A stretch of DNA of 64,000 bases from an uncultured Gemmatimonadota bacterium (lineage in GTDB: Bacteria > 4572-55), in contig CAYOLL010000011.1 in NCBI GenBank assembly GCA_964404765.1, forward strand, positions 773-64,772. The letters are read 5' to 3'. Within the stretch, counting starts at the first letter, position 1. Every line of letters starts with the position of its first letter. The notes under the pieces were generated by a model that saw nothing but the letters and a program-made list of their open reading frames with translations, made no database searches and had not been told where the DNA came from. The translations under genes were made by a program, and so were the position numbers. Of the stretch, positions 11,876-60,049 are shown piece by piece.

Positions 11876-14800
11876 TCAACCCTTCTCCATCTCCCGCTCC
11901 TCAAACTTCACCGACACTAACCGCGAGACGCCCGGCTCTTCCATCGTCACGCCGTAGAGCCGGTCGGCGATTTCCATGGTGCGCTTGTTGTGAGTGATCA
12001 TCACGAATTGCGAATGGCGGGTCAATTCGCGCAAAATTTTGGTGAAGCGGCCGATGTTGGCGTCGTCTAACGGCGCGTCGATTTCGTCTAAGATGCAGAA
12101 CGGGCTGGGTTTGACCAGATAGATGGCAAACAACAGGGCAATGGCTGTCAGCGCCCGCTCGCCGGCCGATAGCAGGGTGATGCTCTGCGGCTTCTTGCCT
12201 TTGGGCCGGGCAATAATGTCGATGGACGCTTCCAGCAAGTCTACATTTTCCTCGATTTTCAAGTCCGCCTCGCCGCCTTCAAACAGGGTCACGAACATGT
12301 TGATAAAGTTCAGTCGAATCTGCTCGTACGTCGTTCGGAAGCGCTCCCGCGCCTCTTTGTTGATCTCGCGCAGCGCCTTTTGCAACGAAGTTTTGGCCTC
12401 TTCCAAATCCTTTTTCTGCGTGGTCAGAAACTCGAACCGATCCGCTTCGGTCTTGTATTCTTCCAGCGCCATCAGGTTGACCGGCCCCAGGCCTTTCAGC
12501 CGCTGACGCAAATCCAGCGCGGTTTCTTCGCCCTTGTGCACATTAAGACCGCCATCCGTCTGCCAATCTTTAACAGCGGCCGGCGCTTCGGTAATCGCTT
12601 CTACATCAGCCTGATATTCTTCCAGCAATCGGGCCTTAATATTTTGCCGTTCCTGTTGCAGATGGGCCAATCGCAGCTCGATTTCATGCTCTTTTAGCTG
12701 CGCGTCTTCCCGTTCTTTGCGAACATGGCGAATCACCTTCTCAATGTCCTGAACTTGATTGGTTACCGTTTGCACAACACTATGTAGCTCGTCTGCCAGT
12801 TTGCGCTGATCTTCTTCTTTTCGGTGCCGCTCTTCCAATGAAATAGCCAGCACGCCATTACGCGACTTTAAGACTTCAATCTGCCTGCGGGCTTCCGCGC
12901 CTTCCTGCTCGTGGCGGACAATAATCTTTTCAGCGTCCTGCCGTGCCTCAGCGATGCGGCTCAAATCCGATTGCAGTTTTTCCAGTTGACCTTCGGCGGA
13001 AATCAAATCAATCTGAGCCTTATTCAACTGCGACGCCAGTTGCCCGGCTTTTTGGCGCACACCTTGCAACGTCTCGCGGGCGGTTTTCAACGCCTCTTCG
13101 GCCTGTTGGCTTTCCTTTGCCGCCTGCTGAAAAGCCAAATCCACCTGCCGAATCTTTTCGCCCGTCAGCTTTTGCTCGTTCCGCTGCTTATCGACCGTCA
13201 CGCTCAACTCTTCCTGGCGCTGATCCAGCGATCCGACCTGAAAAGTCAGGGCCTGAATCTGCCGCTCCATGGTCGTCGCCTTTTGCCGCTGTCGATTCAG
13301 CGTCTCCTGATCGTCTTTTTGCTGCTGATTCAGTTCGTTTAACTCCGCCTCAAGCCGGGAGCGCTTTTGGCCTAATTCACTCAGCCGGATTTGCAAAGCT
13401 TCGGCCTCTTTGGACAGCGAGGCGATTTGCCGTTTGCGGGCCAACAGGCTGCTATCCTTGCCCTGCTGCCCGTGCCCGCCGGTGATGATTCCCGTCCGCT
13501 CGACCGTTTCGCCGTTCAGCGTGGCCAGGTCCCATTGCGGATAATTTTTGTTGATGCGCATGGCCGTCGCCAGATCGTCCACGATCACGGTTTGGGCCAG
13601 TAAAATCCGGGCCAAATCGCCCGCCGGGCCTTTTGCTTCAATCAAATCCGCCGCCACGCCGCGCACACCCGCTTCGCGCAAAATATCGGAGTCGCGAACT
13701 TCCGTTGGCGAGGAATCCGACCGGACTTGCAAACTGAAGTTTGCTACTCCCGCGCCTTTTTCTAAGGGGGAATCCGTCGCATAAAAACCGGCTTGCCCGG
13801 CCTTATCCTTTTGCAAAGCTTCGATACCGGCCAAAATCGTCTCCGGTTTATCGGCAATAATGACCTGCACTTTTTGACCCAACGCCGCCTCAATCGCCGT
13901 CTCAAACTCCGGCTTCGTCGAAACGTAATCGGCCAGTACGCCGGCCAGACCGTCTAAGCCCCGTCCTGAGCCTGTCGAAGGGCGCGTCATAAGCTGCCGC
14001 ACGCCTTTTTGGAAACCTTCAAAACGATTCTGCAAATCCTCCAGCACCTTTAAGTTGGACTTGACCGAGGCCGCCTGCTCGCGATCCTGCTGCTCTTGCC
14101 GGGCAAGCTCGTTGCGCTGTGCCTGCTTGCGCTCCATTTCCGTCGTGCGGGATTTGATTTGATCGGTTAAGCGCTGCGCCGTTTTGTTGACTTCCTCAAA
14201 ATCTTTGGTCAGTTGGGTCAACTCTTTCTGGCGGGTTTGGCGCTCCTCGGCCATCGAGGCCAACTGCCGTTCGCCCTGCTGAAGCTGGACGGTCAAATCC
14301 TGAGCGCGCTGTTTAAAGTTTTTTAAATCATTCTCCAGGCCGAGCCGCTGCCGCAAAATCTCGCGCGTCTTCTCTTCAATCGTAATAATCTGCTTCTCGT
14401 GGACTTTGGTGTCTTCCGTTGCCCGGTCGCGCTCGACTTTGATGTGCTGAAACTGCTTTTGTAACTGACCGATTTTTTCTTGGGTGGCCGCGATGCCGCG
14501 TTCCGTCTCCACGCTGTCCTTTTTCAGCCGCTCCACTTTCGATTTCAGACCTTCGCGTTCCTGATCGAAGCGCGTGATTTGTGTTTCCAATGACTTCTGC
14601 CGCTCGCGGTTGACCAGCAATTCCTCGTCCAATTTGCGGGTTTCCTGCGCCATTTGAGCCAAAACCTGGCGGGCTTTGGTGGCATTTTCCTCTTGCCCAA
14701 GCATCTGTTGCCGTAGTGTTTCGATTTCGGCCTCGCGGCTTTCGATAGCCACGCCAAAACCGCTGATTTTATCGCCCAAATCCTGCTGTTGGCGCAGCAA

Positions 14801-15529
14801 CGGCTTTTCTTCCGCCAGCAATTGATGAAACTTGGCATAGGCCAGCGCCGTCTCCACGGCCAGCAAATCGTTGGAATACTGCTGATACATTTCCGCCCGC
14901 TTGACCTGCCGCTTGAGCGAATTGACCTGCTTGTCCACCTCGGTCACAATATCCTCGAGGCGGATCAAATCGGTTTCGGTGGCGGCCAATTTCTTTAAGG
15001 TGGACTTGCGGCGGGCTTTGTATTTCATGATGCCGGCGGCCTCGTCAAACAGAAAGCGGCGGTCTTCGGTGCGGTCGCTCAGGATGGAATCGACCATGCT
15101 CCGTTCCAGCAGCGAATAGGCGTTGGTGCCCATGCCCGTGTCCAGAAACAAGTCCACAATATCCTTGAGCCGGCATTGCTTGCGATTGATCAGATATTCG
15201 CTATCGCCGGAGCGGAACAGCCGCCGGGTCAGCGTCACGTCGGTGTATTCGAGCGGCAGCACGCCGCGGCTGTTGGTAAAGGTGATGGACACTTCGGCCA
15301 TGCCCGTCGCCGCCCGCTCCTTGGTGCCGACAAAGATGACATCCTCCATCTTTTCGCAGCGCAGGCCGCGCGCATTCTGCTCGCCCAACACCCAGCGAAT
15401 GGCCTCGCTGACATTGGACTTGCCGCAGCCGTTTGGCCCGATAATGGCCGTAATGCCGCTGCCGAAAGTCAATTCCGTTTTGTGATAAAAAGACTTAAAA
15501 CCAACCACTTCCAAATGGGTGAGTTCCAC
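11876..15529 (-). CDS. smc: Chromosome partition protein SMC
   Basis: N-terminal MELTHLEVVGFKSFYHKTELTFGSGITAIIGPNGCGKSNVSEAIRWVLGEQ (Walker A). Long coiled coils, a hinge, and a C-terminal LSGGERALTAIALLFAI...ILDEIDAPLDD (ABC signature / Walker B). 1217 aa. Confidence 0.95.
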   Translation of the reverse strand: MELTHLEVVGFKSFYHKTELTFGSGITAIIGPNGCGKSNVSEAIRWVLGEQNARGLRCEKMEDVIFVGTKERAATGMAEVSITFTNSRGVLPLEYTDVTLTRRLFRSGDSEYLINRKQCRLKDIVDLFLDTGMGTNAYSLLERSMVDSILSDRTEDRRFLFDEAAGIMKYKARRKSTLKKLAATETDLIRLEDIVTEVDKQVNSLKRQVKRAEMYQQYSNDLLAVETALAYAKFHQLLAEEKPLLRQQQDLGDKISGFGVAIESREAEIETLRQQMLGQEENATKARQVLAQMAQETRKLDEELLVNRERQKSLETQITRFDQEREGLKSKVERLKKDSVETERGIAATQEKIGQLQKQFQHIKVERDRATEDTKVHEKQIITIEEKTREILRQRLGLENDLKNFKQRAQDLTVQLQQGERQLASMAEERQTRQKELTQLTKDFEEVNKTAQRLTDQIKSRTTEMERKQAQRNELARQEQQDREQAASVKSNLKVLEDLQNRFEGFQKGVRQLMTRPSTGSGRGLDGLAGVLADYVSTKPEFETAIEAALGQKVQVIIADKPETILAGIEALQKDKAGQAGFYATDSPLEKGAGVANFSLQVRSDSSPTEVRDSDILREAGVRGVAADLIEAKGPAGDLARILLAQTVIVDDLATAMRINKNYPQWDLATLNGETVERTGIITGGHGQQGKDSSLLARKRQIASLSKEAEALQIRLSELGQKRSRLEAELNELNQQQKDDQETLNRQRQKATTMERQIQALTFQVGSLDQRQEELSVTVDKQRNEQKLTGEKIRQVDLAFQQAAKESQQAEEALKTARETLQGVRQKAGQLASQLNKAQIDLISAEGQLEKLQSDLSRIAEARQDAEKIIVRHEQEGAEARRQIEVLKSRNGVLAISLEERHRKEEDQRKLADELHSVVQTVTNQVQDIEKVIRHVRKEREDAQLKEHEIELRLAHLQQERQNIKARLLEEYQADVEAITEAPAAVKDWQTDGGLNVHKGEETALDLRQRLKGLGPVNLMALEEYKTEADRFEFLTTQKKDLEEAKTSLQKALREINKEARERFRTTYEQIRLNFINMFVTLFEGGEADLKIEENVDLLEASIDIIARPKGKKPQSITLLSAGERALTAIALLFAIYLVKPSPFCILDEIDAPLDDANIGRFTKILRELTRHSQFVMITHNKRTMEIADRLYGVTMEEPGVSRLVSVKFEEREMEKG

Positions 15530-18597: not shown

Positions 18598-21213
18598 ATG
18601 AGACCCGCGCCGCGTTTGCGCCCCAACATCTATGACGAACTCAAGATTCACCTGCAAATCGCGCAGGTGGGCAGCTTTATCGTCGGGCTGTTCGCGGACA
18701 AGCTTGTCCCGGATGTGCTGATCGAGCGGCTCAAGCACGACCTGCCCGATCAGTTTCAGTTCACCATCCGCATTGACCCGCAAAAAGTGCATTTCCCGAC
18801 CTTTTTTAACATGAATTGGGAGCCTTTCGGCGTCAACAGCAACATCTTTCACATTATCGGCATTACCGAGTTGGCCGACGAGTGGGTCGAAAGCCTGTTC
18901 CAATATTTGCAATACGGCCGCGATCAGTTCAAGGCCCAGCCGTACGCCCTGGTCTTTTGGCTGGATGAGGCGCTGGAAAAAGAGCTGTTTTACAAAGCGC
19001 CTGACTTTCACCATTGGGTGACCGGCTCGTATGACTTTACCGATCTGGAGGCCGATGACGACGATCTGGCCGAGGCCAAAGCCGAAAATGCCGTGCCGAC
19101 GGACAAAATGGCCGCCTATCTGGACAAAACCGTCTGGCAGTTTGACCATTGGAGCGAGATCGAAAGCCGCGATTTCCTGCTGGAAGTGATGGGTCGGGTG
19201 GACTTGCGCCAATCGTATGTGCCGTCCAGCTACACCGACGAGACCGGGCGCAAGCAGCCGTTGAGCGAGTTGCTGGCCGATTTTTTGGATGACGAACAGC
19301 GCCATTTTCTGGCCTTGCTGGCCGATTTTGGCATGGGCAAATCGTCCTTTTCGCTATGCTATTTTGTGGAATTGGCCCGCAAATTTCTGGCCAAACAGAC
19401 TGATCGCATTCCCGTCTTTGTCACGCTCAAGGATTACCAGGGCGAGTTGGATTTGGAGCGCCTGATCCGGCGCGAGTTCTACGACCGTTATGGCATTGAA
19501 TTGTCCTTTTCCGTCTTTACTGAACTGGCTCTGCAAGGCCGCTTCGTCATCTTTGTTGACGGCTTTGATGAAATGACGGCCACCGCCGGTAACGCCGCGG
19601 CCATCCATAACCTGAACCAACTGACCCGCCTGACTTTTGAAAACATTCTCTTTTTAACCGAAAAAGTGGGCGCGCCGCGCCGGCCCAACAAAGTCGTGCT
19701 GACTTCGCGCACCCACTACTTTCTGACCGAGACGCAGGCGGACAAACTGCTGCGAATCAGCAAAACCCGGCTCTATCGGCTCTACGCTTATAAGGAAGAA
19801 CTGCCGCTGCCCAGCGTCCGGCTGAACGAATTTGACGAAAGCGACGTGCGCGCCTTTATCGCCCAAAAGTTTCCCCAAGCCGACGACCGCGCCTTTTTGG
19901 AAAAGACCATTGCCCAAACCTACAATTTGCAGGATTTGACGAAGCGACCGCTACTGTTGAAGATGATTAGTGAAAGCCTACCGACCCTGCAAACCAAACG
20001 TCAGATCAACGCCGCCGATCTCTACAAAGTTTACACCGACTTATGGATTGAGCAGGAAGACGCCAAATCCGTGTTGACCCCGGCCGGCAAACGCCAATTG
20101 ATGTGGAACATGGCCTGCCACATATTTGAGAAGGGTGGCGACTTTTCGCTGCACTATACCAAACTGATCGAGTCGCTCTCTGAAGGCGAGAAATTTTCCC
20201 CCTTAAAAGAGCCTGCCCTGAGCTTGTCGAAGGGGGAGGGTGTTCCGGCAATTTTTAAAGGCGAGTGGACGGAAGAAAAACTGCTCTACGACCTGACCAC
20301 CTGCTCCTTCCTGAACCGCGACGCTGCCGGCAACTTTAAATTCATGCACAAATCTTTTATGGAGTTTTTTATCGCCGAGAAGCTGGCCCGCGTCATTGAT
20401 CAATTGGACAAATCGCCTTTTTTCAAAAGCCCGGAAGTCCGCTTTTTTATTGACGGTCTAACCCGAAATGACATTTCCTTACGAAATGTCATTTCTAACG
20501 GCATGGAGGAGCGCGACGGGCGCTTTTTTAATCCTATCGCCGAGATTGAAATGGTTTACATCCCGCCAGGCCCATTTATTTATGGCGAAGGGGAAGAGCA
20601 GAAGACCGTGAATATCCAGCGCGGTTATTTTATCGGCAAATATCCGGTGACCAACGCCGATTTTAAGCGCTTTATGGACACGGGCGGTTATGCGCAGCAA
20701 GCGTTTTGGTCGACCGACGGTTGGCAGCGCAAAAGCGCAGACAAATGGTCCGAACCGCGCTATTGGCGCGATGAAAAATGGAAACAAGCCGATTGCCCGG
20801 CCGTGGGCGTGTCCTGGTATGAAGCCGAAGCTTATGCCAACTGGTGTGGCAGTCAATTACCAACCGAAGCGATGTGGGAAAAAGCAGCCCGCGGCAGCGA
20901 TGGCCGTAGATATCCGTGGGGCAACGAGGGACCGACCGATATGCATAGCAATTTTAGCAGCAAAGTTGGCCGAACCACGCCGGTCGACCGCTATCCAAGC
21001 GGTCAAAGTCCTTACGGTGTGTGGGATTTGAGCGGCAATGTGTGGGAATGGAATGCGGATTTATACAGTGTAAAAAATACACTTACGGCTCGCGTGTTGC
21101 GGGGCGGCTCGTGGGGCGGTGGCGGACTCAACTGCCGTTCGGCCTATCGCCTCAGGGACAACCCCGCCGATCGTGTCTACGACGGGGGTTTTCGCGTCGC
21201 CCGGGGATTTTAG
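18598..21213 (+). CDS. NACHT-family STAND NTPase fused to a C-terminal FGE-sulfatase (formylglycine-generating enzyme-like) domain; N-terminal ~230 aa of unknown function
   Basis: Walker A LADFGMGKSSF; Walker B FVIFVDGFDEM. The C-terminal 350 aa (VYIPPGPFIYGEGEE...YPVTNADFKRFM...WYEAEAYANWCG...LRGGSWGGGG...GFRVARGF) matches the FGE-sulfatase/SUMF1 fold. A NACHT-FGS architecture is known in STAND classifications. Confidence 0.85.
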   Translation: MRPAPRLRPNIYDELKIHLQIAQVGSFIVGLFADKLVPDVLIERLKHDLPDQFQFTIRIDPQKVHFPTFFNMNWEPFGVNSNIFHIIGITELADEWVESLFQYLQYGRDQFKAQPYALVFWLDEALEKELFYKAPDFHHWVTGSYDFTDLEADDDDLAEAKAENAVPTDKMAAYLDKTVWQFDHWSEIESRDFLLEVMGRVDLRQSYVPSSYTDETGRKQPLSELLADFLDDEQRHFLALLADFGMGKSSFSLCYFVELARKFLAKQTDRIPVFVTLKDYQGELDLERLIRREFYDRYGIELSFSVFTELALQGRFVIFVDGFDEMTATAGNAAAIHNLNQLTRLTFENILFLTEKVGAPRRPNKVVLTSRTHYFLTETQADKLLRISKTRLYRLYAYKEELPLPSVRLNEFDESDVRAFIAQKFPQADDRAFLEKTIAQTYNLQDLTKRPLLLKMISESLPTLQTKRQINAADLYKVYTDLWIEQEDAKSVLTPAGKRQLMWNMACHIFEKGGDFSLHYTKLIESLSEGEKFSPLKEPALSLSKGEGVPAIFKGEWTEEKLLYDLTTCSFLNRDAAGNFKFMHKSFMEFFIAEKLARVIDQLDKSPFFKSPEVRFFIDGLTRNDISLRNVISNGMEERDGRFFNPIAEIEMVYIPPGPFIYGEGEEQKTVNIQRGYFIGKYPVTNADFKRFMDTGGYAQQAFWSTDGWQRKSADKWSEPRYWRDEKWKQADCPAVGVSWYEAEAYANWCGSQLPTEAMWEKAARGSDGRRYPWGNEGPTDMHSNFSSKVGRTTPVDRYPSGQSPYGVWDLSGNVWEWNADLYSVKNTLTARVLRGGSWGGGGLNCRSAYRLRDNPADRVYDGGFRVARGF
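20203..20240. repeat. In-frame copy of the short repeat CCTGAGC(C/T)TGTCGAAGG inside the NACHT-FGE gene (encodes PALSLSKGEGV)
   Basis: The same 17-nt core also occurs at 13966-13990 (inside smc, opposite orientation, encoding STGSGRG) and 28646-28670 (inside the 880-aa gene, encoding STGSGHG). Confidence 0.6.
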
Positions 21214-21302
21214 ACTGTTTATTTTTTACACTTTTACGCTTTTTAATCTTCTTCCCCCTTTTCCCGCCATCAGGCGGGCGCAAAAATTTTGGGACAAATG
21301 GA

Positions 21303-21362
21303 GTAGCAAACTTCAGTTTGCAAGCCATGGCGCAATCTCGCTGCTTGCAAACTGAAGTTTGC
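21303..21362. repeat. Two inverted copies of palindromic repeat GCAAACT(T/G)(C/A)AGTTTGC (REP-like)
   Basis: gagtagcaaacttcagtttgcaagcc ... cttgcaaactgaagtttgcgattcc. Further copies at 13727-13749 (in frame inside smc) and 58391-58510 (3 copies). Confidence 0.8.
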
Positions 21363-21380
21363 GATTCCAAAATATTAAGC

Positions 21381-22694: not shown

Positions 22695-22785
22695 GGTAAC
22701 CTTGCGAAGGTTAAATTTGTTGCGGAGTCAGGATTTTCAAGATTTGCCGAACTCCCAAGCGTAAACCTTCGCAAGGTTATTTTAA
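22695..22785. repeat. REP/MITE-like element: inverted copies of AACCTTGCGAAGGTTA / AACCTTCGCAAGGTTA flanking ~45 bp
   Basis: Related copies at 35178-35200 and 41397-41463, all intergenic. Confidence 0.7.
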
Positions 22786-23084: not shown

Positions 23085-23250
23085 TATCATCTATTCTCGT
23101 TAAGGGTTAGAAGTTGCAATTGTACAAAGTGTCATTCCGGCACGTTTTTAGCCGGAATCTTCTTACAGGTAAGCAAGATGCCGGATAGAAGCACTCCGGC
23201 ATGACATCGAATTGAAATGCAATTTCTAACCCTTAATCAGTATATATATG
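23085..23250. mobile_element. MITE-like element with ~25-bp terminal inverted repeats (CTATTCTCGTTAAGGGTTAGAAGTTGCAATT ... AATTTCTAACCCTTAATCAGTATATAT)
   Basis: Terminal inverted repeats read directly; no coding capacity. Confidence 0.6.
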
Positions 23251-23427
23251 AGTTCAGTCTAATAACCATGAAATACTCGAAACACACGAAAATAACGGAT
23301 TGCAGAGCGCTACGCCAGAATTTTGAGTTCTGCTTGTCCGAGCTACGCAAGGCTTTAATTCATAAACCTTTCGTGTATTATTTGTCTTTCGTGGTGAATA
23401 ATTCAGTGACTCGTATATGTTCAAATT

Positions 23428-24060
23428 TCAAAATCGGAGCTCGTGTACGTCCGGGTCGGCCAACAGTTTGGCGGTCAGGCGCTCGTGCGCTTTGGGTCGG
23501 CCACTGGCCAGCCAGCGACAGGTCATTTGATTGCCGGACTTTACCTGATGCCGTTCTTTAAGCAGTAGACCGTTGGCACGAAAAGTGCCTTCTAACTCCG
23601 CAATTTTGGGAATATTTAATGAACAAACCAGTTCGTAAGCCCGCACTTCCCAGATATTGTCAATCAAATGCTCGATCCACGGAAACAACCACAGTACAAT
23701 CAATGCCATCGCCAAACCAGCGCCGGCCAAAGCGTACTGCCCGCCGCCAATGGCCATGCCCAGCGCCGCCGTCAGCCAGATCGTGGCAGCGGTGGTCAAA
23801 CCGATCACCCGGCCGCCTTCGCGCAAAATCACGCCCGCGCCCAAAAAGCCGACCCCACTGACAATTTGGGCGGCAATGCGCGTCGGGTCCCGATCCTGCG
23901 CCAAATGACCGGACAGCATCGTAAACAGGGTGGCGCCGGTGCAGATAAAAATCAACGTGCGAAACCCGGCGGCTTTGTCACGAAACTCCCGCTCCAGGCC
24001 AATCATGCCGCCGGCTATTACCGCCAATATAATTCGGATAAAATCTTCATTGCTTAGCAT
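23428..24060 (-). CDS. MgtC/SapB family membrane protein
   Basis: MLSNEDFIRIILAVIAGGMIGLEREFRDKAAGFRTLIFICTGA is an MgtC-family N-terminus. ATG 24060 preferred over the upstream TTG. Confidence 0.85.
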   Translation of the reverse strand: MLSNEDFIRIILAVIAGGMIGLEREFRDKAAGFRTLIFICTGATLFTMLSGHLAQDRDPTRIAAQIVSGVGFLGAGVILREGGRVIGLTTAATIWLTAALGMAIGGGQYALAGAGLAMALIVLWLFPWIEHLIDNIWEVRAYELVCSLNIPKIAELEGTFRANGLLLKERHQVKSGNQMTCRWLASGRPKAHERLTAKLLADPDVHELRF

Positions 24061-24089
24061 AAAAACGACCAAATTGAAGGCTTGTGCTG

Positions 24090-24250
24090 ATTATATACTG
24101 ATTAAGGGTTAGAAGTTACATTTTAAACCCTTAGGGTTTCCGTTGCCGAAAGTGTAAAAATCGGCAAGGCTTAACCATCTCCGTAAAGAAAACCCTAAGG
24201 GTTTGTTCTGCCAAAAATAACCCTTAACGAGAATAGTGGATAGAAAATAT
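24090..24250. mobile_element. Second MITE-like element with the same termini as 23085-23250, in inverted orientation; internally contains AACCCTTAGGGTT palindromes
   Basis: TATATACTGATTAAGGGTTAGAAG ... AACCCTTAACGAGAATAGTGG are reverse complements of the termini of the first element. The two copies bracket the MgtC gene. Confidence 0.6.
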
Positions 24251-24423
24251 AAACCAATGGCTTGTCGCATCTAATCAATTTCCCGACGTGGTTTTGCTTT
24301 TTCCGGACATCTCGAATCATCTTGCCGCTGCGATAAACCAGCGTCGCCACGGTGTGTCGCAGGAATTGGCGGGTGCTTTCGGGGGATATGTTCCTTTTCT
24401 GCAACTCTACTTCAGATCGCGCT

Positions 24424-24470
24424 ACGAAAAATTATACCCTTATCTGCGGGTCATGTCAAGGAAATTTACT
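24424..24470 (+). repeat. Direct repeat R1 (AAAAATTATAC-N7-CTGCGGGTCATGTCAAGGAAATT), partner at 27586-27630
   Basis: About 40-nt near-identical direct repeats, 3.16 kb apart, delimiting a mosaic segment. Confidence 0.7.
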
Positions 24471-27209: not shown

Positions 27210-27585
27210 CATCTCCTTATGAAAAAAAATGTTTTGTTGACAGAGAAAATGTTATTGCGTTGTTAGACCATGACAAATTATAATAATTACTACAATTTGT
27301 ATTCAGCAATAAATTTTTATATTTTAATAAAAAATTTATTTCTCGCGATAAATAATACATTTACGCTTAATGCGTTATTTATGCTGAGTATAAAAAATAT
27401 TTTTATTAGCGCATAAATTCTATTTAGCGTAATGTTGCTACCAATGCTTCAGTATACAAATAATTTTGCTTATGAGATAAAATATTTTGCTTTAAATTAA
27501 AATTTAATTGCTTGCGGCGCATAATATCTCGCCTTTTTGCACAAATCTCTATAACACACCGCGTAGACATTAGATAATGCCTACA
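27210..27585. other. AT-rich (~25 % GC) non-coding island with repeated TTAGCG(C/T)A(T)AA-like motifs
   Basis: Composition contrasts sharply with the ~50 % GC surroundings. Lies between the start of the 231-aa gene and repeat R2. Confidence 0.6.
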
Positions 27586-27630
27586 AAAAATTATACGCTC
27601 GCCTGCGGGTCATGTCAAGGAAATTCACTT
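27586..27630 (+). repeat. Direct repeat R2 (partner of R1 at 24424-24470)
   Basis: See R1. Confidence 0.7.
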
Positions 27631-27640
27631 GAGGATGCTC

Positions 27641-30283
27641 TCAAGCCTCATCCGCCCGCTTCTTCACTTCTTCCAGAATCAGCTTGATGCCGGGATTTTT
27701 GAGTGGATCGACGACCAATCTGGCCTTGGAGCCGTCGCGGCTGAGCTCGACCAATTGCAGCGGCAGGAGTACGCCTTCCAGCGCGCTTTTCAAGAAGGTG
27801 TGGTGCGGTGCGTCTAAGCCCTCAATCTTACCCGGCACAATGAATTTGGCGATGACTTCGTTGACTAAGGTGGCGGACTGTGCGGAGATGGCCGTTTCGA
27901 TGGTTTGATGTTTGGGGAACAGCTTTTTGAGTGGTTCGCGGATGATCAGGCCCAGCAAATCCTCAAAGTTTTTGTAAGCGGAGACGGCAAAATCAAACGG
28001 TGTACGGCCCTGTCCGGAGCCTGTCGCCGGGCCGGCGGCGGTCACAAACACGCCTTTTTGGTAGCAGGCTTTCAGCTCGTCCTGGGCCGGTTGTTTGAGG
28101 CGTTCCAGATTGTTTTCGGCCATACGGGCAATTTCGCGGCCTTCGTTGGTGGCGTCGTTGGCGTAGTCACGGGCCAGGCGGTGGGCGGCGTGCCATTCGC
28201 TCAACAACTCGGTTTGGGTAAAGGGCGCGGGCAGCCAGGCGATCACGCCGTGAATAAAGCGGTTTTCGAACTGCTGGAACAGTTCGGTCAAATGGGCTTG
28301 CTGTTCGTCCGTCTTCAGCGGCAGGCCGATCAACAGGAAAAAGTCATCTTCGGTGGCCCGCAGTTGCTGCAGGAAGTCGCGCACGGCTTTGTTGTCTACC
28401 TGCAGCAGGTCGGTCAGCCACACCTGGCCGCCGCGGGTGGTGTTCATCCAATGGGTGTGGTAGCGCACGGGTTTATCGACAAAGTTGGCCAGCGGCAATT
28501 GGCCGTAGTTGATGGTTTTGAGCAGAGCGGTCAGCATTTCCGGCGTTTTGGCCTGCTGACGGATGGCGCGGGCCTTGTCGGCATACAAATCGACGGCGGT
28601 GGCGGCCAGGTCGAACTCCAAAACAGCGTCCAACTCCGTCGCCCCGTGCCCTGAGCCTGTCGAAGAGCCGGGCGTCAGGCGCAAATAACTCAATTCGGTC
28701 GTCATTTTTTTGACCAGATGCTCGGCCAGATATTTATAATTGACGCCGCCGGCCAGATCGGTAAAGGCCTGATACAACAGCATGTTGGCCAATTGGCGAA
28801 TCGTCCGCTTGGACGGCAGGCTGGCCAGGCGCAGCAGCATCAAAATCTTGATCAGCCGCTGGGCGTAGACAACATCGCTGGGCTCGTCAGGAAACAGGCC
28901 GGAAATGCGCTTGGCAAAGTAATCGTGGTAATGATCGTAATATTTGCGCATGGCCGGTGATTCCTTGAGCCGCGTCTCAAAATGATCGAAGATACGGTCG
29001 GGCGTCAGCAGATGGGTGTAATCCTCGGCCAAAATGCCGGCGATGTTGCGGGTTGGATCGCCCTTGACCTGAAAATGGATGAAGTCCACTACGCCGCGTC
29101 GCTGGCTGAACAACTCGGCGCACACGTCCAGCAACTCGATGGTTTCGGGATGGACGGGGTAAATCTGGCGGAAGGCGTCCAGCGTCAGCGGAATGTCGTT
29201 GAAGCTGAATTTGAGCTGTTTGTAGGCTGCTTCGAGATGTGCCTGGCTACCCTCTTTTTTGAGAATCAGCCGGTAGTCGATTAGTTCTTTGATGTGGCGG
29301 GTGGACAGGCTCAGGCCGGAATGATAGCGATCCTTGATTTTGTCGATGACTTCTTTTTGGATGTCGCCGGTTTTTTCGATATGTTCCTGTAGGGCGGCCA
29401 CGACCCAGATGGGCCGGGTGGCGCTGCGTTCGCCCAAAAATTGCAGGAAGCGGGCGTCTTCGTTCAGGGCGGTTTTTTGACTTTTAGCCTTCAGAAACTC
29501 GGACAATTCGTCGATCAGCAGGACAAAGCCGTCGATTTTGTGCTGGGCCAGAATTTTCTCCAGCCGCTCAAAGCCTTCGCCGCGATCCAGCGCCAATTGG
29601 AACGGGACTTTTTGATCGAGGCCGGTCAAGTATTTTTTGGTCAGTTCGTAGGCGGCTTTTTGGTCTTTGTCCAGCAGGCGCTTCCAGGTGGTCAGGCCCG
29701 GATATTTGTCGCTGACGAGTTTGTCCAAATGGCGGGCGTGCAAGGGCAGGACGTGGACTTGAAATTGCTGCAGGAAGTAGGATTCCTCGGCTAAAGTGGC
29801 GTCGATTTTGTAGGGCGGTTTGGCCAGCCGGTTCTGGACGGCTTCGAAGACAATTTCCTCCAGCGGGCGGGCGGCTTTGTAGGCCAGCAGCGGAATTTCG
29901 ACAATCAGCAGTGTCTTTTTGCTGAGCGCAGTGAAGTGACTGCCCAGCTTGGGCTGCTGTTTAACCAGCGGTTCCCACATCTGCTTTTGGCGCTTGAGCG
30001 GCTGCAGCAACAGGCTGAGGATGCTGAGAAAGTGCGACTTGCCGGAGCCGAAGCTGCCTGATAAAAAAAAGCCTCGCCCTTGTGGACGGGCCAGGCTTTC
30101 CAGAATGATTTTCAGGTTGGTTTCAATATCTTCGGTCAGGACAAAAGAGGCGGTCAGGCCGTTGAGATATTGTTGTCCGGCCGGGTCGTCGGGCGCGGCG
30201 CTTTCGTTGACTTCGCGCAGTTTTTGCAGTTGAATGACCGTCTCCACCACGGGCAGACTGATCAGGTCTTGAATTTTTGGCAT
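27641..30283 (-). CDS. Large P-loop NTPase (880 aa), possibly defence-associated (BrxC/PglY-like is only a guess)
   Basis: Walker A FFLSGSFGSGKSHFLSIL; Walker B FVLLIDELSEFL; long helical C-terminal region. Contains two in-frame copies of Gly/Ser-rich inserts (STGSGHG, ATGSGQG) from the CCTGAGCCTGTCGAAG-type repeat. Family not recognisable from sequence alone. Confidence 0.6.
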   Translation of the reverse strand: MPKIQDLISLPVVETVIQLQKLREVNESAAPDDPAGQQYLNGLTASFVLTEDIETNLKIILESLARPQGRGFFLSGSFGSGKSHFLSILSLLLQPLKRQKQMWEPLVKQQPKLGSHFTALSKKTLLIVEIPLLAYKAARPLEEIVFEAVQNRLAKPPYKIDATLAEESYFLQQFQVHVLPLHARHLDKLVSDKYPGLTTWKRLLDKDQKAAYELTKKYLTGLDQKVPFQLALDRGEGFERLEKILAQHKIDGFVLLIDELSEFLKAKSQKTALNEDARFLQFLGERSATRPIWVVAALQEHIEKTGDIQKEVIDKIKDRYHSGLSLSTRHIKELIDYRLILKKEGSQAHLEAAYKQLKFSFNDIPLTLDAFRQIYPVHPETIELLDVCAELFSQRRGVVDFIHFQVKGDPTRNIAGILAEDYTHLLTPDRIFDHFETRLKESPAMRKYYDHYHDYFAKRISGLFPDEPSDVVYAQRLIKILMLLRLASLPSKRTIRQLANMLLYQAFTDLAGGVNYKYLAEHLVKKMTTELSYLRLTPGSSTGSGHGATELDAVLEFDLAATAVDLYADKARAIRQQAKTPEMLTALLKTINYGQLPLANFVDKPVRYHTHWMNTTRGGQVWLTDLLQVDNKAVRDFLQQLRATEDDFFLLIGLPLKTDEQQAHLTELFQQFENRFIHGVIAWLPAPFTQTELLSEWHAAHRLARDYANDATNEGREIARMAENNLERLKQPAQDELKACYQKGVFVTAAGPATGSGQGRTPFDFAVSAYKNFEDLLGLIIREPLKKLFPKHQTIETAISAQSATLVNEVIAKFIVPGKIEGLDAPHHTFLKSALEGVLLPLQLVELSRDGSKARLVVDPLKNPGIKLILEEVKKRADEA

Positions 30284-31589: not shown

Positions 31590-31721
31590 TCAGATATTCC
31601 ATTTCAGGCGTGAATTCAAGTTATGAGTGAAATATTACGTCCCAGTTTTTCAGCACATAAGCGAGGAACGAAAAACAAAATACGGCAATCTCAAACCCTG
31701 TCAAGCAAAATTCCAGATTGC

Positions 31722-31812
31722 ATCAAAACCCAACCGTCACGCTCCCATACCCATTCCGCCCGGCCGCCGGGTAGTAATAGTTGCCGCCCGCCCAATCGTC
31801 GTAATAGCCTGT
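31722..31812 (-). pseudogene. Duplicated 3'-end fragment of the TonB-dependent receptor gene (encodes YYDDWAGGNYYYPAAGRNGYGSVTVGF*)
   Basis: About 92 % identical over ~95 bp to 32360-32455, the true 3' end of the receptor gene. Lies immediately after the xisI stop. Confidence 0.8.
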
Positions 31813-31814
31813 TG

Positions 31815-32150
31815 TCAATTATCCCCATAACCCGTGTACTTGTGTTTATAAGGCGCCTGAAATCCCAGCACAATATCTTCCTTGGGGACGCCCATGCTCA
31901 CTAACTCGTCGGCTATGCCCAGTTCGGTGCCATTATGCTGAATCCAAATCTTCCCGTTTTTGATGTCTAAGTGAAGGATGCAGCCGTGTGTCCAGTCATA
32001 ATGATCCCACCCGACCAACATCATCTGATAGTGATCCCGCTGCGTATCAAAAATATACTGAGTTTCCACGCCTGCTGGCGGTGGAAGTTGTTGGCCCAGG
32101 TCTTGTATGAACCGGGTGATATGAGCGCGGTATTGGTCTAATTTTTCCAT
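31815..32150 (-). CDS. xisI: XisI family protein
   Basis: MEKLDQYRAHITRFIQ...IFDTQRDHYQMMLVGWDHYDWTHGCILHLDIKNGKIWIQHNGTELGIADELVSMGVPKEDIVLGFQAPYKHKYTGYGDN is a strong match to the XisI family. Confidence 0.85.
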   Translation of the reverse strand: MEKLDQYRAHITRFIQDLGQQLPPPAGVETQYIFDTQRDHYQMMLVGWDHYDWTHGCILHLDIKNGKIWIQHNGTELGIADELVSMGVPKEDIVLGFQAPYKHKYTGYGDN

Positions 32151-32362
32151 TTTAGAATCTCCTCTGTTCCGGGATCGAAAACAATCAACGTGATTTGCGT
32201 TTCTTCGCAGACCGTTTGCACAAACTGCTTCTGGAAAAAAGCTTTGTGCACATCAATCGGAATGGCCAGGTACAACCGTCTGTCCGGCTCTTTTTCACGC
32301 AGGGCAATGTTGCTTCCGCCGATATGATAGGCAAGATTTGCCTTGTCGTCAACAGAAAAGCA
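32138..32362 (-). pseudogene. xisH: XisH family protein, N-terminally truncated (C-terminal ~74 aa only); overlaps the xisI start
   Basis: Translation CFSVDDKANLAYHIGGSNIALREKEPDRRLYLAIPIDVHKAFFQKQFVQTVCEETQITLIVFDPGTEEILKWKN* matches the XisH C-terminus. It begins in frame immediately after the TGA stop of the TonB-receptor gene (32363-32365). The N-terminal half, with the PD-(D/E)XK catalytic residues, is absent. Confidence 0.7.
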
Positions 32363-34945
32363 TCAAAACCCCACCGTCACGCTGCCATACCCATTCCGCC
32401 CCGCCGCCGGGTAGTAATAGTTGCTGCCCGCCCAATCATCGTAATAGCCCGATGTTTCGTATTCCTTATCAAGCGCGTTATTCAGCCAGACCCTAAACGT
32501 CAGATCGCGCAGGCGGTTGACTTTGAGCGAAGCGTTCAGGTTGAGCACACCGTAGGGGTCAACTGTGCGCGTTTCGTCTTCCGTATTGTCCAAATACTGC
32601 TGGCCGGCATATTGATATTGGGCGGACAGGCTGACATTGCCCACAGCGGCCAATGTCCAATTCGCGGTAGCTCGCAGGTTGGCCAGTGCAGACGGAAATA
32701 AAGCAATGGTCTGGCCGTCCAACCGCTGCGGCTGCCCGTCCCACGAATAGGCGGTGAAATCCACAAACTCGTTCTGGCTGAAGGCGATGTTGCCGGATAA
32801 TTCCAACCCTAAGGGTCTCGCCTTTTGACCCTTAGGGTTTTTCCGTTGATCATCGTCAAACCCTAAGGGTTGAGAAACAAAACCCTTAGGGTTGATTTTG
32901 ATTGCCGTGCTCAATTCGAGGCCCTGGTGCAGCGTTTTGTCGGCGTTGCCGCGCACGGCCCGGCCTTCTTCCACTACCTGGCCGTAAGGTACCAGCTCGT
33001 TGCGGAAGTCCATGCGATACAGGTTTAGCTTGGCGTTCCAGCTCCACAGATTGCTAATCTGTGCTACACTAAGGCCGAGCTCGTAATCGTAAACTGTTTC
33101 GTGTTGGGTCAACGGGTCGCTCCATTCCACATAGCGAATCGAACCATCGGCCTTGTAGACGTTTTTGGATTTGGCAAAGAGCGGGTCCACGCCAAAATCG
33201 TCCGCGCCCTGCCATTGATCGAACATGTCGGCGTCGGTCGGCTCGCGCTGGCCGACGGAGAAATTGCCAAAGGCGCTGAGGCCGCTGGAAATTTCATAAT
33301 TCACGCCGAGCTTGGGATTGAAAAAAGTGTAGTCCACCACGTAATAATTGAGTTCTGCGCCGGAGAAATTACCGGCCGATTTTTGCTCCATCGTGCGCTT
33401 TTTGTATTGCAGTTGCAGCTCGGCCATTAGACGCACGGACGGGGTCAGGGCGTAGTTTTCGTGGGCGTAGACGGTGGCCCACCACTTTTTGCCGTCGTAG
33501 TCGTAATAGCGCAGATTCGGTTGCGCATCCGGCGGCAGATTGGACGCCCACTTGACCTCGCCCCAGTGCGACGACCAAAAATCGCTCAACTCGCCGCCGA
33601 TGGCCAATTGTCCGCGTCCGGCGCTGTGCCGCACATCTAAGCGCGGCAGCCAGCCGATTTGATCCTTGTCCACCCACTTTTGCCGCACAATGTCGAATTC
33701 GCTGATCGTTTGACCCGTGCCGCCCGGGTAATAATCGTAACCGTGTGCGACCAAATCCGCCCCGGTCTTGAACGTCTCGTAATAACCTTCGCCATGCACG
33801 TAAAACAAAGTGTTGCTCAAGGTCAGACCGTCGCGCAGCCGCCACTCGTGTTGCAACTGATATTGGGGCTGATTGAAATTGTCCGTGGTGGGCACATTGG
33901 CATGGTAATGCGTGGGATTGGCGCGATGATTCAGCTTCAAGTCGGCCTCGGCCACGGCGTCCCAGGCCGCGTCCAGATGAAACGGGCCGCTAAAGATGTT
34001 GACGCGCGTGGTCATGTTGGCGTCGAAGCGGGCCGCGCCGATAAAGTAAGCCCAGGCGTCCAGACCGGAACGCTCGCGATAGCCGTCAGTCAGCACTTTG
34101 GAATAGCGGCCATACACGGCGTAGGTGTTGTTGATCAGCCCGGAGCGGAACTGGGCCGTGTATTTGCGTGTGCCGTAACTGCCAAAACCGGTGGTCAGGC
34201 TCACGCCTTGCGCGCCGGTCAGATTGTCCGTGACAACGTTGACCGAGCCGCCAAAACCGCTCAGGCCGACCATGCCACCCACGCCACGCTGCACCTGAAT
34301 ATCCTGCACACTCTCGGCCACATCGGGCAAATCCACCCAATAGACTTGGTGATCTTCCGGGTCGTTGAGCGGCACGTTGTTGATCATGACATTGACGCGC
34401 TGCTGGCCAAAACCGCGAATCTTCAGATACGAATAGCCGATGCCGTTGCCCGATTCAGAATAGCTGAGCAGATTCGGCGTTTCCTGTAGCAGCATGGGGA
34501 TGTCCTGCCCCTGATTGGCCGCGGCAATACGCTCGTGATGCAGATTGGCAAAGGCCATAGGTGTGCGGCCGTCGGCCCGTGTGCCGGTGATGATCACTTC
34601 CTGGCCGGGCAGAATGGTCGGGGTTAATTGGAGCGTCAAAACGGCGCTTTGACTTACGGACACGCGCTGCTTGCCGACGCCGTAACCGAGATGACTGGCG
34701 CTGATCGTATATTGGCCGTCGAGGATATCAGCGATCTCGAATTGACCGGCGGCGTTGCTGACGGCTCCGCGGTTGAGCCCTTCCACCAGCACATTGACGC
34801 CGGGAATGATCGCACCGGAAACAGCGTCCGAAACCGTGCCGGAAACGGTAGCGCAATGGACAATGGACAATGGGCAATGGGCAATAAAAAGAAAAACGGC
34901 GAAAGTGCAGGTAAAAAATCGTAGATTAAAGATTGAAGATTGCAT
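32363..34945 (-). CDS. TonB-dependent receptor with N-terminal carboxypeptidase-regulatory-like domain
   Basis: CarboxypepD_reg-like TVSGTVSDAVSGAIIPGVNVLVEG...GQFEI; plug DIPMLLQETPNLLSYSESG...LKIRGF; barrel ending ...GSVTVGF. Start taken at the second Met (the ORF-track start is 34981). Confidence 0.85.
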   Translation of the reverse strand: MQSSIFNLRFFTCTFAVFLFIAHCPLSIVHCATVSGTVSDAVSGAIIPGVNVLVEGLNRGAVSNAAGQFEIADILDGQYTISASHLGYGVGKQRVSVSQSAVLTLQLTPTILPGQEVIITGTRADGRTPMAFANLHHERIAAANQGQDIPMLLQETPNLLSYSESGNGIGYSYLKIRGFGQQRVNVMINNVPLNDPEDHQVYWVDLPDVAESVQDIQVQRGVGGMVGLSGFGGSVNVVTDNLTGAQGVSLTTGFGSYGTRKYTAQFRSGLINNTYAVYGRYSKVLTDGYRERSGLDAWAYFIGAARFDANMTTRVNIFSGPFHLDAAWDAVAEADLKLNHRANPTHYHANVPTTDNFNQPQYQLQHEWRLRDGLTLSNTLFYVHGEGYYETFKTGADLVAHGYDYYPGGTGQTISEFDIVRQKWVDKDQIGWLPRLDVRHSAGRGQLAIGGELSDFWSSHWGEVKWASNLPPDAQPNLRYYDYDGKKWWATVYAHENYALTPSVRLMAELQLQYKKRTMEQKSAGNFSGAELNYYVVDYTFFNPKLGVNYEISSGLSAFGNFSVGQREPTDADMFDQWQGADDFGVDPLFAKSKNVYKADGSIRYVEWSDPLTQHETVYDYELGLSVAQISNLWSWNAKLNLYRMDFRNELVPYGQVVEEGRAVRGNADKTLHQGLELSTAIKINPKGFVSQPLGFDDDQRKNPKGQKARPLGLELSGNIAFSQNEFVDFTAYSWDGQPQRLDGQTIALFPSALANLRATANWTLAAVGNVSLSAQYQYAGQQYLDNTEDETRTVDPYGVLNLNASLKVNRLRDLTFRVWLNNALDKEYETSGYYDDWAGSNYYYPAAGRNGYGSVTVGF
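32800..32905. repeat. Four copies of palindrome CCCT(A/T)AGGGT(T) inserted in frame inside the TonB-receptor gene (encode ...NPKGFVSQPLGFDDDQRKNPKGQKARPLGLE...)
   Basis: The same palindrome family forms the MITE-like elements at 23085-24250 and 40185-40275. Confidence 0.75.
34854..34885. repeat. Heptamer tandem repeat (CAATGGA x2, CAATGGG x2) inside the 5' coding region (signal-peptide region) of the TonB receptor gene
   Basis: Read directly; on the coding strand it encodes IAHCPLSIVHC. Confidence 0.85.
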
Positions 34946-35250
34946 TGTTGCCTCCTTATAGAAATTGACGGAGGCAAACAAGCTGAAAGCGGATGGCTGG
35001 AAGCTGAGAGCTTGAATCCTGTTCCCTCCGCCGGTATGATCCGGATCAGGTTCGACGGGTGCGTTCTCAGCCCGCTTATGGCGGGCGCCCCGACAGGAAA
35101 TTTATGTGAATAACTGTTAGAATCAACCACACTTGCTAAGGTTAAAGTCGGTAAGAAATCAACAGTTTCAAGATCTTTGCAATCCTGAAGTGTAACCTTC
35201 GCAAGGGTACGCAACCTTTGGTCTATCCTTCATGTCGTCATATTTTCAAA

Positions 35251-38517: not shown

Positions 38518-38594
38518 GGGGTCGTAGTTCAGCTGGTTAGAACGCTGGCCTGTCAAGCCAGAGGTCGCGAGTTCAAGTCTCGTCGACCCCGCCA
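38518..38594 (+). tRNA. tRNA-Asp (GTC)
   Basis: Cloverleaf: acceptor GGGGTCG/CGACCCC, anticodon loop CTGTCAA, T-arm GCGAG TTCAAGT CTCGT, CCA encoded. Confidence 0.9.
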
Positions 38595-38604
38595 TTGAAT
38601 GAAA

Positions 38605-38637
38605 ATTGCAGAGGTCCAAAGCCTCTGCAATTTTTTA
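38605..38637 (+). terminator. Rho-independent terminator (stem ATTGCAGAGG / CCTCTGCAAT + T6)
   Basis: Follows tRNA-Asp. Confidence 0.75.
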
Positions 38638-38653
38638 CTATAAGGGGACTGAT

Positions 38654-38729
<76 letters not shown>

Positions 38730-38762
38730 TCCTCTTCTAACGGTAGGATTATTAAGTGGAAT

Positions 38763-38838
38763 GCTGGCGTAGCTCAGCTGGTAGAGCAGCTGATTCGTAA
38801 TCAGCAGGTCAACGGTTCAATTCCGCTCGCCAGCTCCA
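38763..38838 (+). tRNA. tRNA-Thr (CGT)
   Basis: Acceptor GCTGGCG/CGCCAGC, anticodon loop TTCGTAA, CCA encoded; one A-C mismatch in the T stem. Confidence 0.8.
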
Positions 38839-40184: not shown

Positions 40185-40275
40185 TGACTAAACCCTAAGA
40201 GTTTTCCGTCAAACAGGGGCAAATACCTGAAAAAGTCTACAATTTCCAGGTAAAAAACCTTAGGATTTGGCCTTC
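40185..40275. repeat. Palindromic repeat element (AAACCCTAAGAGTTT ... AAAAACCTTAGGATTT) between the sheath and tube genes
   Basis: Same CCCTWAGGG family as 23085-24250. Confidence 0.6.
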
Positions 40276-41396: not shown

Positions 41397-41463
41397 AACC
41401 TTGCGAAGGCTTTGGTGCGCAATCCCACAAGTTTTGCGGTGAAGCCTTCGCAAGGTTGCCCAC
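41397..41463. repeat. REP-like inverted pair AACCTTGCGAAGGCTT ... AAGCCTTCGCAAGGTTG
   Basis: Same family as 22695-22785. Confidence 0.7.
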
Positions 41464-58390: not shown

Positions 58391-58510
58391 TAATGGAATA
58401 GCCAACTTCAGTTTGCGCGTAGTTTATGTGACCAAATGCCGCGCATTTGTTTGCAAACTGAAGGTTTGCTACCCCGGGTTGTCTTTATTTGCAAACTGAA
58501 GTTTGCAACT
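58391..58510. repeat. Three copies of palindromic repeat GCAAACTKMAGTTTGC (REP-like) in the intergenic region
   Basis: agccaacttcagtttgcg / tttgcaaactgaaggtttgc / tttgcaaactgaagtttgcaac. The ORF-track ORF 58436..58639 is an artefact of these repeats. Confidence 0.8.
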
Positions 58511-58965
58511 CCGGTTTTGGAAAACAAAAAACCACGAATTCACAGGGAATCCGTGGCTATGGCGGTTGCCGAATATAAAAAAGCCACGGACGTTAAGATA
58601 TTGTGCGTTCGTGGCTTAGAAGAATTTTTACTAAATTGAACTTAGTGTCGCATCTTCACCACGGTGCACAAAACGGCCCGATAATCACTGTAAACTAAAA
58701 ACATTACAGTGCGCGGGAACCTTTGCACAAAAGTTGTGGTGAATTTTAACATGCAATAAACTCCTAAAGAGAGTTATTAATTATATTCGTTTTTATCTAT
58801 AAAAAGTCCGGTTGGACTATAACCTAAAATTATCAGCGGGTTAAAGATATTTTTTCTTAAAACGATGTCAAGCGGATTTTTTAAATTTTTAGCCAATGAC
58901 GAAAAAATTTAAAATGGATCCCAGCCCCGCATGAGCCGGGACCGGGATGCAAAAGTCTGTCAACG

Positions 58966-59075
58966 CAACAGCGCCATCTTCTTCGTCTCCGTGCCGGACG
59001 GCGTTTGCAGGCGATAGACATTGACGCCGCCGCGCACGGCTTGACCGTCGTCCGCGCCGCCGTCCCATATTCCAC
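58966..59075 (-). pseudogene. Fragment of a T9SS C-terminal sorting domain coding end (…WDGGADDGQAVRGGVNVYRLQTPSGTETKKMALLR*)
   Basis: About 90 % identical to the 3' ends of the LVIVD genes at 60055-60180 and 61618-61750. Confidence 0.7.
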
Positions 59076-59830: not shown

Positions 59831-60049
59831 AATTTGCATGTTTGATCCTTTTCAGAGTGTTACGAATGGGCACTTGAATAGGAGTAAAATAGGACTGCGC
59901 CAATTTATTGTCAATACCAAACGGCAGGCAGGATAAAAAGAAAAAGCCGCTCTCCATTTCAAGAGAGCGGCTTTGTCCCATGTCCCCGGCACTTTTTGTA
60001 CAACTATGGATACGGCACACTTCCGGTAAGTGCCGGGGACATTTCAGAA

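Follow-up and report, generated by a model that had tools for sequence, protein, structure and literature searches.

Short repeats in frame within four genes of an uncultured Gemmatimonadota bacterium: probable small non-autonomous elements of the REP/REPIN/MITE class

How do several families of short repeats come to lie both between genes and, without disturbing the reading frame, inside conserved genes of the same genome? This question is raised by a 64,000-nucleotide stretch (the window in what follows) of contig CAYOLL010000011.1 (positions 773 to 64,772; assembly GCA_964404765.1) of an uncultured Gemmatimonadota bacterium, whose nearest relatives are metagenome-assembled genomes (MAGs) of the Fibrobacteres-Chlorobi-Bacteroidetes (FCB) type, for example 'Ca. 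Cloacimonetes bacterium 4572_55'. A preliminary description of the window had noticed four such families (families 1 to 4), with copies inside smc, a TonB-dependent receptor gene and two other genes, and had taken these copies for in-frame insertions reminiscent of Rickettsia palindromic elements. This interpretation is supported by the present analysis. We consider it probable that the repeats are small non-autonomous selfish DNA, of the class that comprises repetitive extragenic palindromes (REPs), their hairpin-forming doublets (REPINs) and miniature inverted-repeat transposable elements, or MITEs, and that they have spread in the host lineage.

All four families were recovered at or near the places first described, far above the 0.01-0.03 matches expected by chance. 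The motif counts cover the 64-kb window of the host genome, in which family 1 (GCAAACTKMAGTTTGC) has 5 matches against 0.01 expected, family 2 (CCCTWAGGGTT) has 10 against 0.03, family 3 (AACCTTSSGAAGGTT) has 7 against 0.02, and family 4 (CCTGAGCCTGTCGAAGG) has 3 at up to two mismatches against 0.01; a fourth, more diverged copy of family 4 (3 mismatches) is at 28014. No further dispersed short families of such type were found in a k-mer census of the window, in which the other repeats are internal to proteins. The families had all been called palindromic, and this holds for families 1-3 but not for family 4, whose single-stranded DNA (ssDNA) fold has a z score of about 0. The unit of families 1-3 is a hairpin with a stem of 6-7 bp and a loop of 3-4 nt (GCAAAC-TGAA-GTTTGC in family 1, AAACCC-TWA-GGGTTT in family 2 and (T)AACCTT-GCG-AAGGTT(A) in family 3). 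These over-represented units are arranged in inverted pairs, 17-74 nt apart, and each pair forms one long hairpin when folded as ssDNA (z of -8.6, -6.2, -6.2, -5.1 and -6.2), as REP/REPIN sequences do. The stem is preceded by GGAGTAGC in two family-1 arms (at 13726 and 21300) and by GGGGTAGC in a variant arm near 58450; the remaining family-1 arms have GGAGTC, GGAATC, GGAATA or GGAGTT, and a 5' tetranucleotide of the GTAG/CGTC type, which is conserved in REPs, is absent from families 2-4. No Rfam family matches any of the window repeats or the repeats in ten repeat-rich loci. None of the four families has a copy in the smc neighbourhoods of the nearest relatives (about 38 kb of non-redundant sequence; SMC 56-61% identical), and families 2 and 3 are absent from a further 1.16 Mb of fetched DNA.

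The insertion status of the six copies that lie inside genes of the window was tested against sets of 119 SMC, 117 TonB-receptor, 55 BrxC/PglY-like and 14 NTPase homologues. All six coincide with insertions that are absent from every homologue. The copies lengthen the proteins relative to every orthologue, and therefore they arrived by insertion and not by codon drift. The preliminary description had reasoned that the same peptides in orthologues from distant taxa would make them ancestral; the repeat-encoded peptides are absent from all of the homologue sets. Lineage-unique segments of at least 3 aa number 11 in the four host proteins, and six of them are at repeat copies; the segment at the repeat site is the longest unique one in each host protein (in SMC it is the family-4 segment, which is equalled in length by another). 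Each of the six copies keeps the reading frame and introduces no stop codon. Structure models, proposed earlier as a further check, agree with this: in the AlphaFold models of the TonB receptor and SMC the inserted peptides have pLDDT below 50 and form loops outside the well-folded cores. Because conserved domains are retained downstream of the inserts, all four host genes look functional.

Two of the copies are in smc. The family-1 palindrome noticed at 13727 is present, but as a part of a whole 63-nt doublet (13688-13750), each arm of which aligns with the corresponding arm of the intergenic doublet at 21300-21368. The right arm of the smc doublet, CTTGCAAACTGAAGTTTGCTACTCC, is intact and matches the family consensus perfectly, and its left arm, GGAGTCGCGAACTTCCGTTGGCGAG, is degenerate (5 mismatches in 25 nt, versus 0.0 control hits at equal stringency); the doublet still folds as an ssDNA hairpin, with z of -3.4. 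The SMC hinge loop that contains it is 43 aa long, versus a median of 27 and a maximum of 35 aa among the 119 orthologues; in the two nearest relatives it has 27 aa (SMC 61% identical) and 23 aa (56% identical). The family-4 insertion is 4-5 aa long, and SGRG occurs in none of the 119 orthologues. In the AlphaFold model of residues 490-700 (mean pLDDT 83.9), pLDDT falls below 50 only at 519-523, which is the family-4 site, and in three short stretches within 596-610, which is the family-1 site.

In the TonB-dependent receptor gene, four copies of family 2 had been counted; the motif is indeed there, and the copies are the four hairpins (AAACCCTWAGGGTTT) of one compound insert, set out as two short hairpin pairs. 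The empty site of a relative, CAACCG|GGCCTC, resembles the outermost half-stems of the insert, CAACCC...GGGTTG, and therefore the net insertion, by codon alignment to that site, is 78 nt or 26 aa (KGFVSQPLGFDDDQRKNPKGQKARPL). This peptide is absent from all 13 aligned orthologues (63-40% identity) and from the 117 homologues. In the AlphaFold model, residues 687-707 have pLDDT below 50 and lie between the strands 663-684 and 713-729, where the connection in orthologues is only 2 residues long. Long loops (23, 17, 7) alternate with short turns (3, 4, 4) in the barrel, and we infer from this alternation, and from counting the strands of the predicted secondary structure from the C-terminal one, that the insert is in the periplasmic turn T7. 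A thiamine pyrophosphate (TPP) riboswitch directly upstream of the gene (35006-35102, minus strand; RF00059, 78 bits) suggests that the receptor is a thiamine-related outer-membrane transporter. The 3' end of the receptor gene is duplicated about 640 nt downstream, as a 96-nt direct repeat with 93% identity (31720-31815 and 32360-32455); the second copy may be a fragment of a gene or belong to a paralogue's end.

The two ATPase genes carry family 4. One of them had been labelled a NACHT gene; for it Pfam reported no NACHT domain at E <= 0.001 and only an FGE-sulfatase domain. Its segment PALSLSKG is exactly 8 aa long and absent from the 14 homologues, and the prefix of this copy, AGAGCCTGC, is the commonest 9-nt left flank of the metagenome copies described below (10 of 140). 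In the BrxC/PglY-like protein, both PATGSGQG (8 aa) and TGSGHGA (7 aa) are unique in comparison with 55 homologues. The peptides first read from the repeats were confirmed: SMC has VANFSLQ and STGSGRG, and the 871-aa protein has PALSLSKGE; the 880-aa protein has STGSGHG and ATGSGQG at its two sites. Families 1, 2 and 4 had all been described as both intergenic and in frame within genes; this is the case for families 1 and 2, but all four window copies of family 4 are intragenic. They are also all on the plus strand of the window, and are read in two frames, PSTGSG-type in the minus-strand genes and LSLSKG in the plus-strand gene. The extended unit, (G/C)CC(T/C)G(T/C)CCTGAGCYTGTCGAAGGG, is 24 nt long, in agreement with the insertions of 7-8 codons. 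Since it comprises 8 codons and its motif has no stop codon in five of the six frames, family 4 would be suited to insertion into genes. The BrxC/PglY-like gene has, beside its 3' end, a 3.1-kb segment that is bracketed by a direct repeat of 49 nt with 88% identity (24422-24470 and 27581-27629); the two repeat copies may represent a regulatory region present twice, or the segment may have been inserted and they may be its ends.

What kind of element family 1 is was indicated by other genomes. The 18-mer of family 1 was scanned against 185,579 species-representative genomes, which gave 49 loci, several of which share unrelated MAGs (Desulfococcaceae HSG9, Chloroflexota, Anaerolineales and others). 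A GGAGT head is often common to these loci, and they also hold sister hairpins that have other stems and the same CTGAAG/CTTCAG loop. At four of the 49, in four unrelated genomes, an open reading frame (ORF) with HUH and Y motifs adjoins clusters of the exact hairpin GCAAACTTCAGTTTGC, and in one of them (L006) the hairpin lies on both sides of the gene. The four ORFs score 74-97 bits against NCBIfam NF047646, 'REP-associated tyrosine transposase' (RAYT; cut-off 80), and match Pfam Y1_Tnp; the product of that in L006 is 30% identical to E. coli RayT. On sequence grounds, family 1 is thus to be regarded as a REP of a RAYT family, because the exact hairpin adjoins RAYT genes in four unrelated genomes. 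We infer that the window copies were probably moved by a RAYT encoded elsewhere in the host genome. The link provides a testable enzyme-substrate pair, with GGAGTAGCAAACTTCAGTTTGC as the ssDNA hairpin. In the arrays at the side of the RAYT genes, hairpins with the CTGAAG loop alternate two stem types, such as GCAAAC and GACGAAC; such arrays look like a cross-phylum REP superfamily with a conserved loop.

Table 1. Repeat copies and their host genes in the window, and RAYT genes at family-1 loci of other genomes
Feature	Position	Strand	Remarks
smc, host gene, 1217 aa, intact	11876..15529	-	Pfam SMC_N and SMC_hinge; full-length alignment to 119 orthologues
Family-1 REP doublet in smc hinge, 63 nt, 21 codons	13688..13750		encodes GVANFSLQVRSDSSPTEVRDS
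Family-4 24-nt unit in smc	13959..13982	+	encodes (P)STGSGRG, just before hinge
NTPase gene, 871 aa, C-terminal FGE-sulfatase domain	18598..21213	+	host gene (P-loop NTPase/FGE-sulfatase)
Family-4 24-nt unit in NTPase/FGE-sulfatase gene	20211..20234	+	encodes PALSLSKG
Family-1 REPIN-like doublet	21300..21368		between convergent gene ends; arms 25-27 nt, spacer 17 nt
Family-3 doublet, TAACCTTGCGAAGGTTA arms	22696..22780		intergenic, upstream of E2 acyltransferase gene
Family-2 doublet	24125..24204		intergenic, nested in repeat element 24094-24235; fold z -6.2
BrxC/PglY_N (DUF6079) ATPase gene, 880 aa	27641..30283	-	host gene
Family-4 unit, variant CCGGAGCCTGTCGCCGG, in BrxC/PglY-like gene	28008..28031	+	encodes PATGSGQG
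Family-4 unit in BrxC/PglY-like gene	28644..28667	+	encodes (S)STGSGHG
TonB-dependent receptor gene, 860 aa from ATG	32363..34945	-	Pfam Plug and TonB_dep_Rec_b-barrel; model pLDDT 82.6
Family-2 compound insert, four AAACCCTWAGGGTTT hairpins	32804..32894		inside TonB receptor gene; fold z -6.2
Family-3 singlet	35193..35210		just upstream of TPP riboswitch
Family-2 doublet, degenerate	40190..40270		intergenic
Family-3 doublet	41397..41457		intergenic; fold z -6.2
Family-1 cluster, three arms	58395..58512		intergenic, upstream of ABC transporter gene start; fold z -4.7
RAYT genes	L006 692-1258; L017 3274-3978; L028 1966-2784; L044 379-1074		'Vin_4', Chloroflexota, two Anaerolineales MAGs

Among the intergenic copies (Table 1), the family-1 doublet at 21300-21368 is an inverted repeat with 93% complementarity and folds as an ssDNA hairpin of -28.6 kcal/mol (z -8.6), and the family-3 doublet at 22696-22780 has 16-nt arms with 100% complementarity (z -5.1). 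The family-3 copy formerly placed at 35178-35200 exists, at the corrected position given in the table. A MITE-like region had been outlined at 23085-24250; it consists of two separate elements (23089-23247 and 24094-24235), of which only the second has the exact family-2 motif. The elements, of about 150 nt each, have both ends in common (CTATTCTCGTTAAGGGTT ... TTCTAACCCTTAATCAGTATATA), differ in their cores, and lie in inverted orientation on either side of mgtC (23428-24072); no clear target-site duplication was seen at them. The pair resembles a small composite transposon, one element of which has a family-2 doublet as its core.

The window has other repetitive features. At 58952-59067, 60042-60347 and 61607-61912, at least three minus-strand ORFs or gene ends have a common conserved 3' terminal segment; 108 nt are shared by three gene 3' ends and 300 nt by two of them, and the segment may encode a common C-terminal sorting domain. 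A gene for a 477-aa protein contains six tandem repeats of 126 nt (42 aa; 60293-61219), and a plus-strand ORF of 2111 aa (44964-51299) contains four diverged internal repeats with a spacing of about 1.0-1.2 kb. Furthermore, a cluster of three tRNA genes is on the plus strand at 38518-38835, and a run of at least 15 C residues at 63937-63951, near the window end, may be a homopolymer tract or a contig-end effect.

Family 4 extends far beyond the window. Its core was found in at least 120 metagenome contigs, with soil and water among the sources, in at least 120 viral contigs, and in plasmids or chromids of Sphingobium (up to 7 copies per replicon), Moraxella osloensis, Comamonas and Variovorax. 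Elsewhere its typical form is an inverted doublet, CCGTTCGC-CCTGAGCYTGTCGAAGGG, a spacer, and CCCTTCGACARGCTCAGG-GCGAACGG; 33 of 143 copies have such a partner within 80 nt, and the window unit matches one arm of this widespread doublet. The copies are depleted in long open frames of at least 450 nt (53%, versus 84% for random positions), and they also occur within ORFs that carry genuine Pfam domains (ABC1, MacB/FtsX, PFL-like and MutS). On predicted viral or proviral contigs of IMG/VR (L179-L258) the core is common, with 4-5 copies in L218 and L251, and this frequency raises the possibility of phage-borne spread.

A RAYT gene found with family 4 in L061 is 1.9 kb from the copy and flanked by a different palindrome. 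A tblastn search of plasmids with two RAYTs detected none in the Sphingobium and Moraxella replicons that carry family 4. The idea that the core is a conserved loop between covarying stems was abandoned, since the complementarity of the flanks was 0.33-0.40, versus 0.26-0.36 for shuffled sequences, and the core is a doublet arm. In the literature searched we found neither a name for family 4 nor a relevant paper for its DNA or peptide strings. It may be, although we hold this only tentatively and consider it rather doubtful, that family 4 is a very widespread, unnamed, frame-keeping unit of 24 nt, (CCGTTCGC)CCTGAGCYTGTCGAAGGG, which inserts into genes across many bacterial phyla and (pro)viruses by an enzyme or process other than the RAYT genes seen here, and which leaves PSTGSG, LSLSKG, PFDKLR, LRQAQG and PELVEG in unrelated proteins. 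If so, it would have gone unrecognised as a general cause of loop insertions and of 'hypothetical proteins' that are spurious. The spread of family 4 is relevant to annotation, as translations of the unit turn up in many predicted proteins, and one may ask how a sequence of such small size comes to be dispersed across phyla.

The explanation we prefer can be put as a series of events. The replicating unit of families 1-3 would be the inverted doublet, as one long hairpin in ssDNA, and family 1 would be moved in trans by a REP-associated tyrosine (HUH/Y1) transposase via a single-stranded hairpin intermediate; families 2 and 3 are placed in this class, too, on account of their architecture. Most insertions into genes would be purged. 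Copies would survive if they add a multiple of three bases, if the frame in use meets no stop codon in them, and if they lie in loops that tolerate extra residues: in SMC, the hinge loop and the pre-hinge linker; in the TonB receptor, a tight beta-turn of the barrel; and in both ATPases, variable linkers. Selection on the protein may later have led to erosion or trimming of the copies, which would fit the asymmetric decay seen in the smc doublet and the shortness of the family-4 remnants. Several results weigh against this explanation. The 64-kb window contains no RAYT or other transposase gene, and neither target-site duplications nor polymorphisms (excision or empty sites) were observed. Outside the window no copy of family 2 or 3 was found, so that their mobility is argued from architecture. 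For family 4, no RAYT adjoins any of about 240 loci, the window copies do not fold (z about 0), and none of these copies has an inverted partner within 120 nt. As singlets with neither fold nor partner, they would be immobile remnants under a REPIN model, a view that does not easily explain clean insertions of 21-24 nt.

Some of these properties would be expected if the motifs were sites selected by the host for protein binding, uptake, recombination or RNA stability (compare HIP1, DUS and Chi), useful as DNA or RNA even within genes. The 18-nt core of family 4 is conserved exactly in contigs that range over 33-73% GC, in viral contigs and in several genera of proteobacteria, which is unusual for a purely selfish, vertically evolving repeat, and its four window copies share one DNA strand. 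We nevertheless regard such selection as unlikely, since comparison with every orthologue shows the protein to be lengthened by each intragenic copy, family 1 has a physical tie to RAYT genes elsewhere, no Rfam family matches, and the nearest relatives lack all four families. That same tie of family 1 to RAYT genes argues against spread without a transposase, in which template switching, gene conversion or slippage would place new copies of hairpin-prone sequences in breaks or at stalled forks, with family 4 as a 24-nt minisatellite seed. The metagenome contigs L073 and L105 contain 24-nt tandem arrays of family 4, no transposase is near the approximately 240 family-4 loci, no target-site duplications were seen, and the empty site of the TonB receptor resembles the half-stems of the insert, all as this mode of spread might predict; slippage, however, does not yield isolated single units in unrelated genes, and we think this mode of spread quite unlikely as the origin of the repeats.

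A more sceptical reading takes the peptides for low-complexity linkers, ancestral or convergent in origin, or takes the intragenic copies for artefacts of assembly or binning. The SMC hinge loop and the ATPase linkers do vary in length across their protein families, and the source is a MAG contig. Yet no homologue has the peptides; the copies of family 4 have 15-17 of 17 core nucleotides in common although they are read in two frames and in unrelated genes; and each of the six insertions is in frame and followed by conserved domains, which is not what chimeric joins would produce. This reading is thus highly improbable. Among these rivals, only the functional-site and transposase-free explanations keep appreciable probability, mainly for family 4.

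Compared with known systems, the likeness to Rickettsia palindromic elements suggested in the preliminary description holds for behaviour: the repeats of the window lie in frame in unrelated genes that look functional, and their peptides, in the modelled proteins, form loops in a surface position, compatible with the protein fold. Ten families of the Rickettsia elements are described. According to the account of Ogata et al. 2000 given in PMC10969869, and as far as that account extends, the Rickettsia elements are about 100-150 bp long, add about 30-50 aa, occur only in Rickettsia and have no known mobilising enzyme. The likeness therefore fails for size, as the window inserts are 24, 63 and 78-91 nt long (4-26 aa); the host is also unrelated, and one family, family 1, is linked to RAYT as a REP.

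Family 4, in its scale, may be closest to the small dispersed repeats of cyanobacteria, which are reportedly 21-27 nt long (Elhai et al. 2008, Genome Res; see also PMC3116915). Compared by size and habit, the 24-nt family 4 is likewise dispersed and intragenic with no obvious transposase, and family 2 is nested inside another repeat element. The hosts of family 4 differ, as they include many phyla and viral contigs, and its singlet does not fold, whereas inverted doublets occur elsewhere.

Intragenic MITEs (ERIC, BOX and the Anabaena MITEs) are non-autonomous elements of more than 100 bp with terminal inverted repeats derived from insertion sequences, and some form in-frame fusions with ORFs (PMC10969869). 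The repeats of the window resemble them as non-autonomous elements sometimes fused in frame with host ORFs. However, shared and partly inverted ends were seen only in the pair that flanks mgtC; the inserts in genes consist of hairpin doublets alone or of a 24-nt unit, at which no terminal inverted repeats beyond their own hairpins and no duplication were found.

REPs and REPINs are mobilised by RAYT transposases and are extragenic by definition (Bertels and Rainey 2011, PMC3116915). The window repeats share with them the short palindromic units, of about 20-40 nt in REPs, the presence of several families in one genome, the inverted doublets with a spacer, the ssDNA hairpin and the occurrence of singlets, as well as an identical family-1 hairpin beside RAYT genes in other genomes. 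They differ in that six copies are intragenic and in frame, namely two doublet-type elements (families 1 and 2) and four family-4 singlets, and in that the host belongs to an uncultured FCB-type lineage and is not a proteobacterium. REP/REPIN sequences are regarded as strictly extragenic; if the assignment made here is correct, the window copies show that proteins can be remodelled by this class in organisms other than Rickettsia, here in an FCB-type lineage of which little is known, and the four host proteins mark loops that tolerate 4-26 extra residues.

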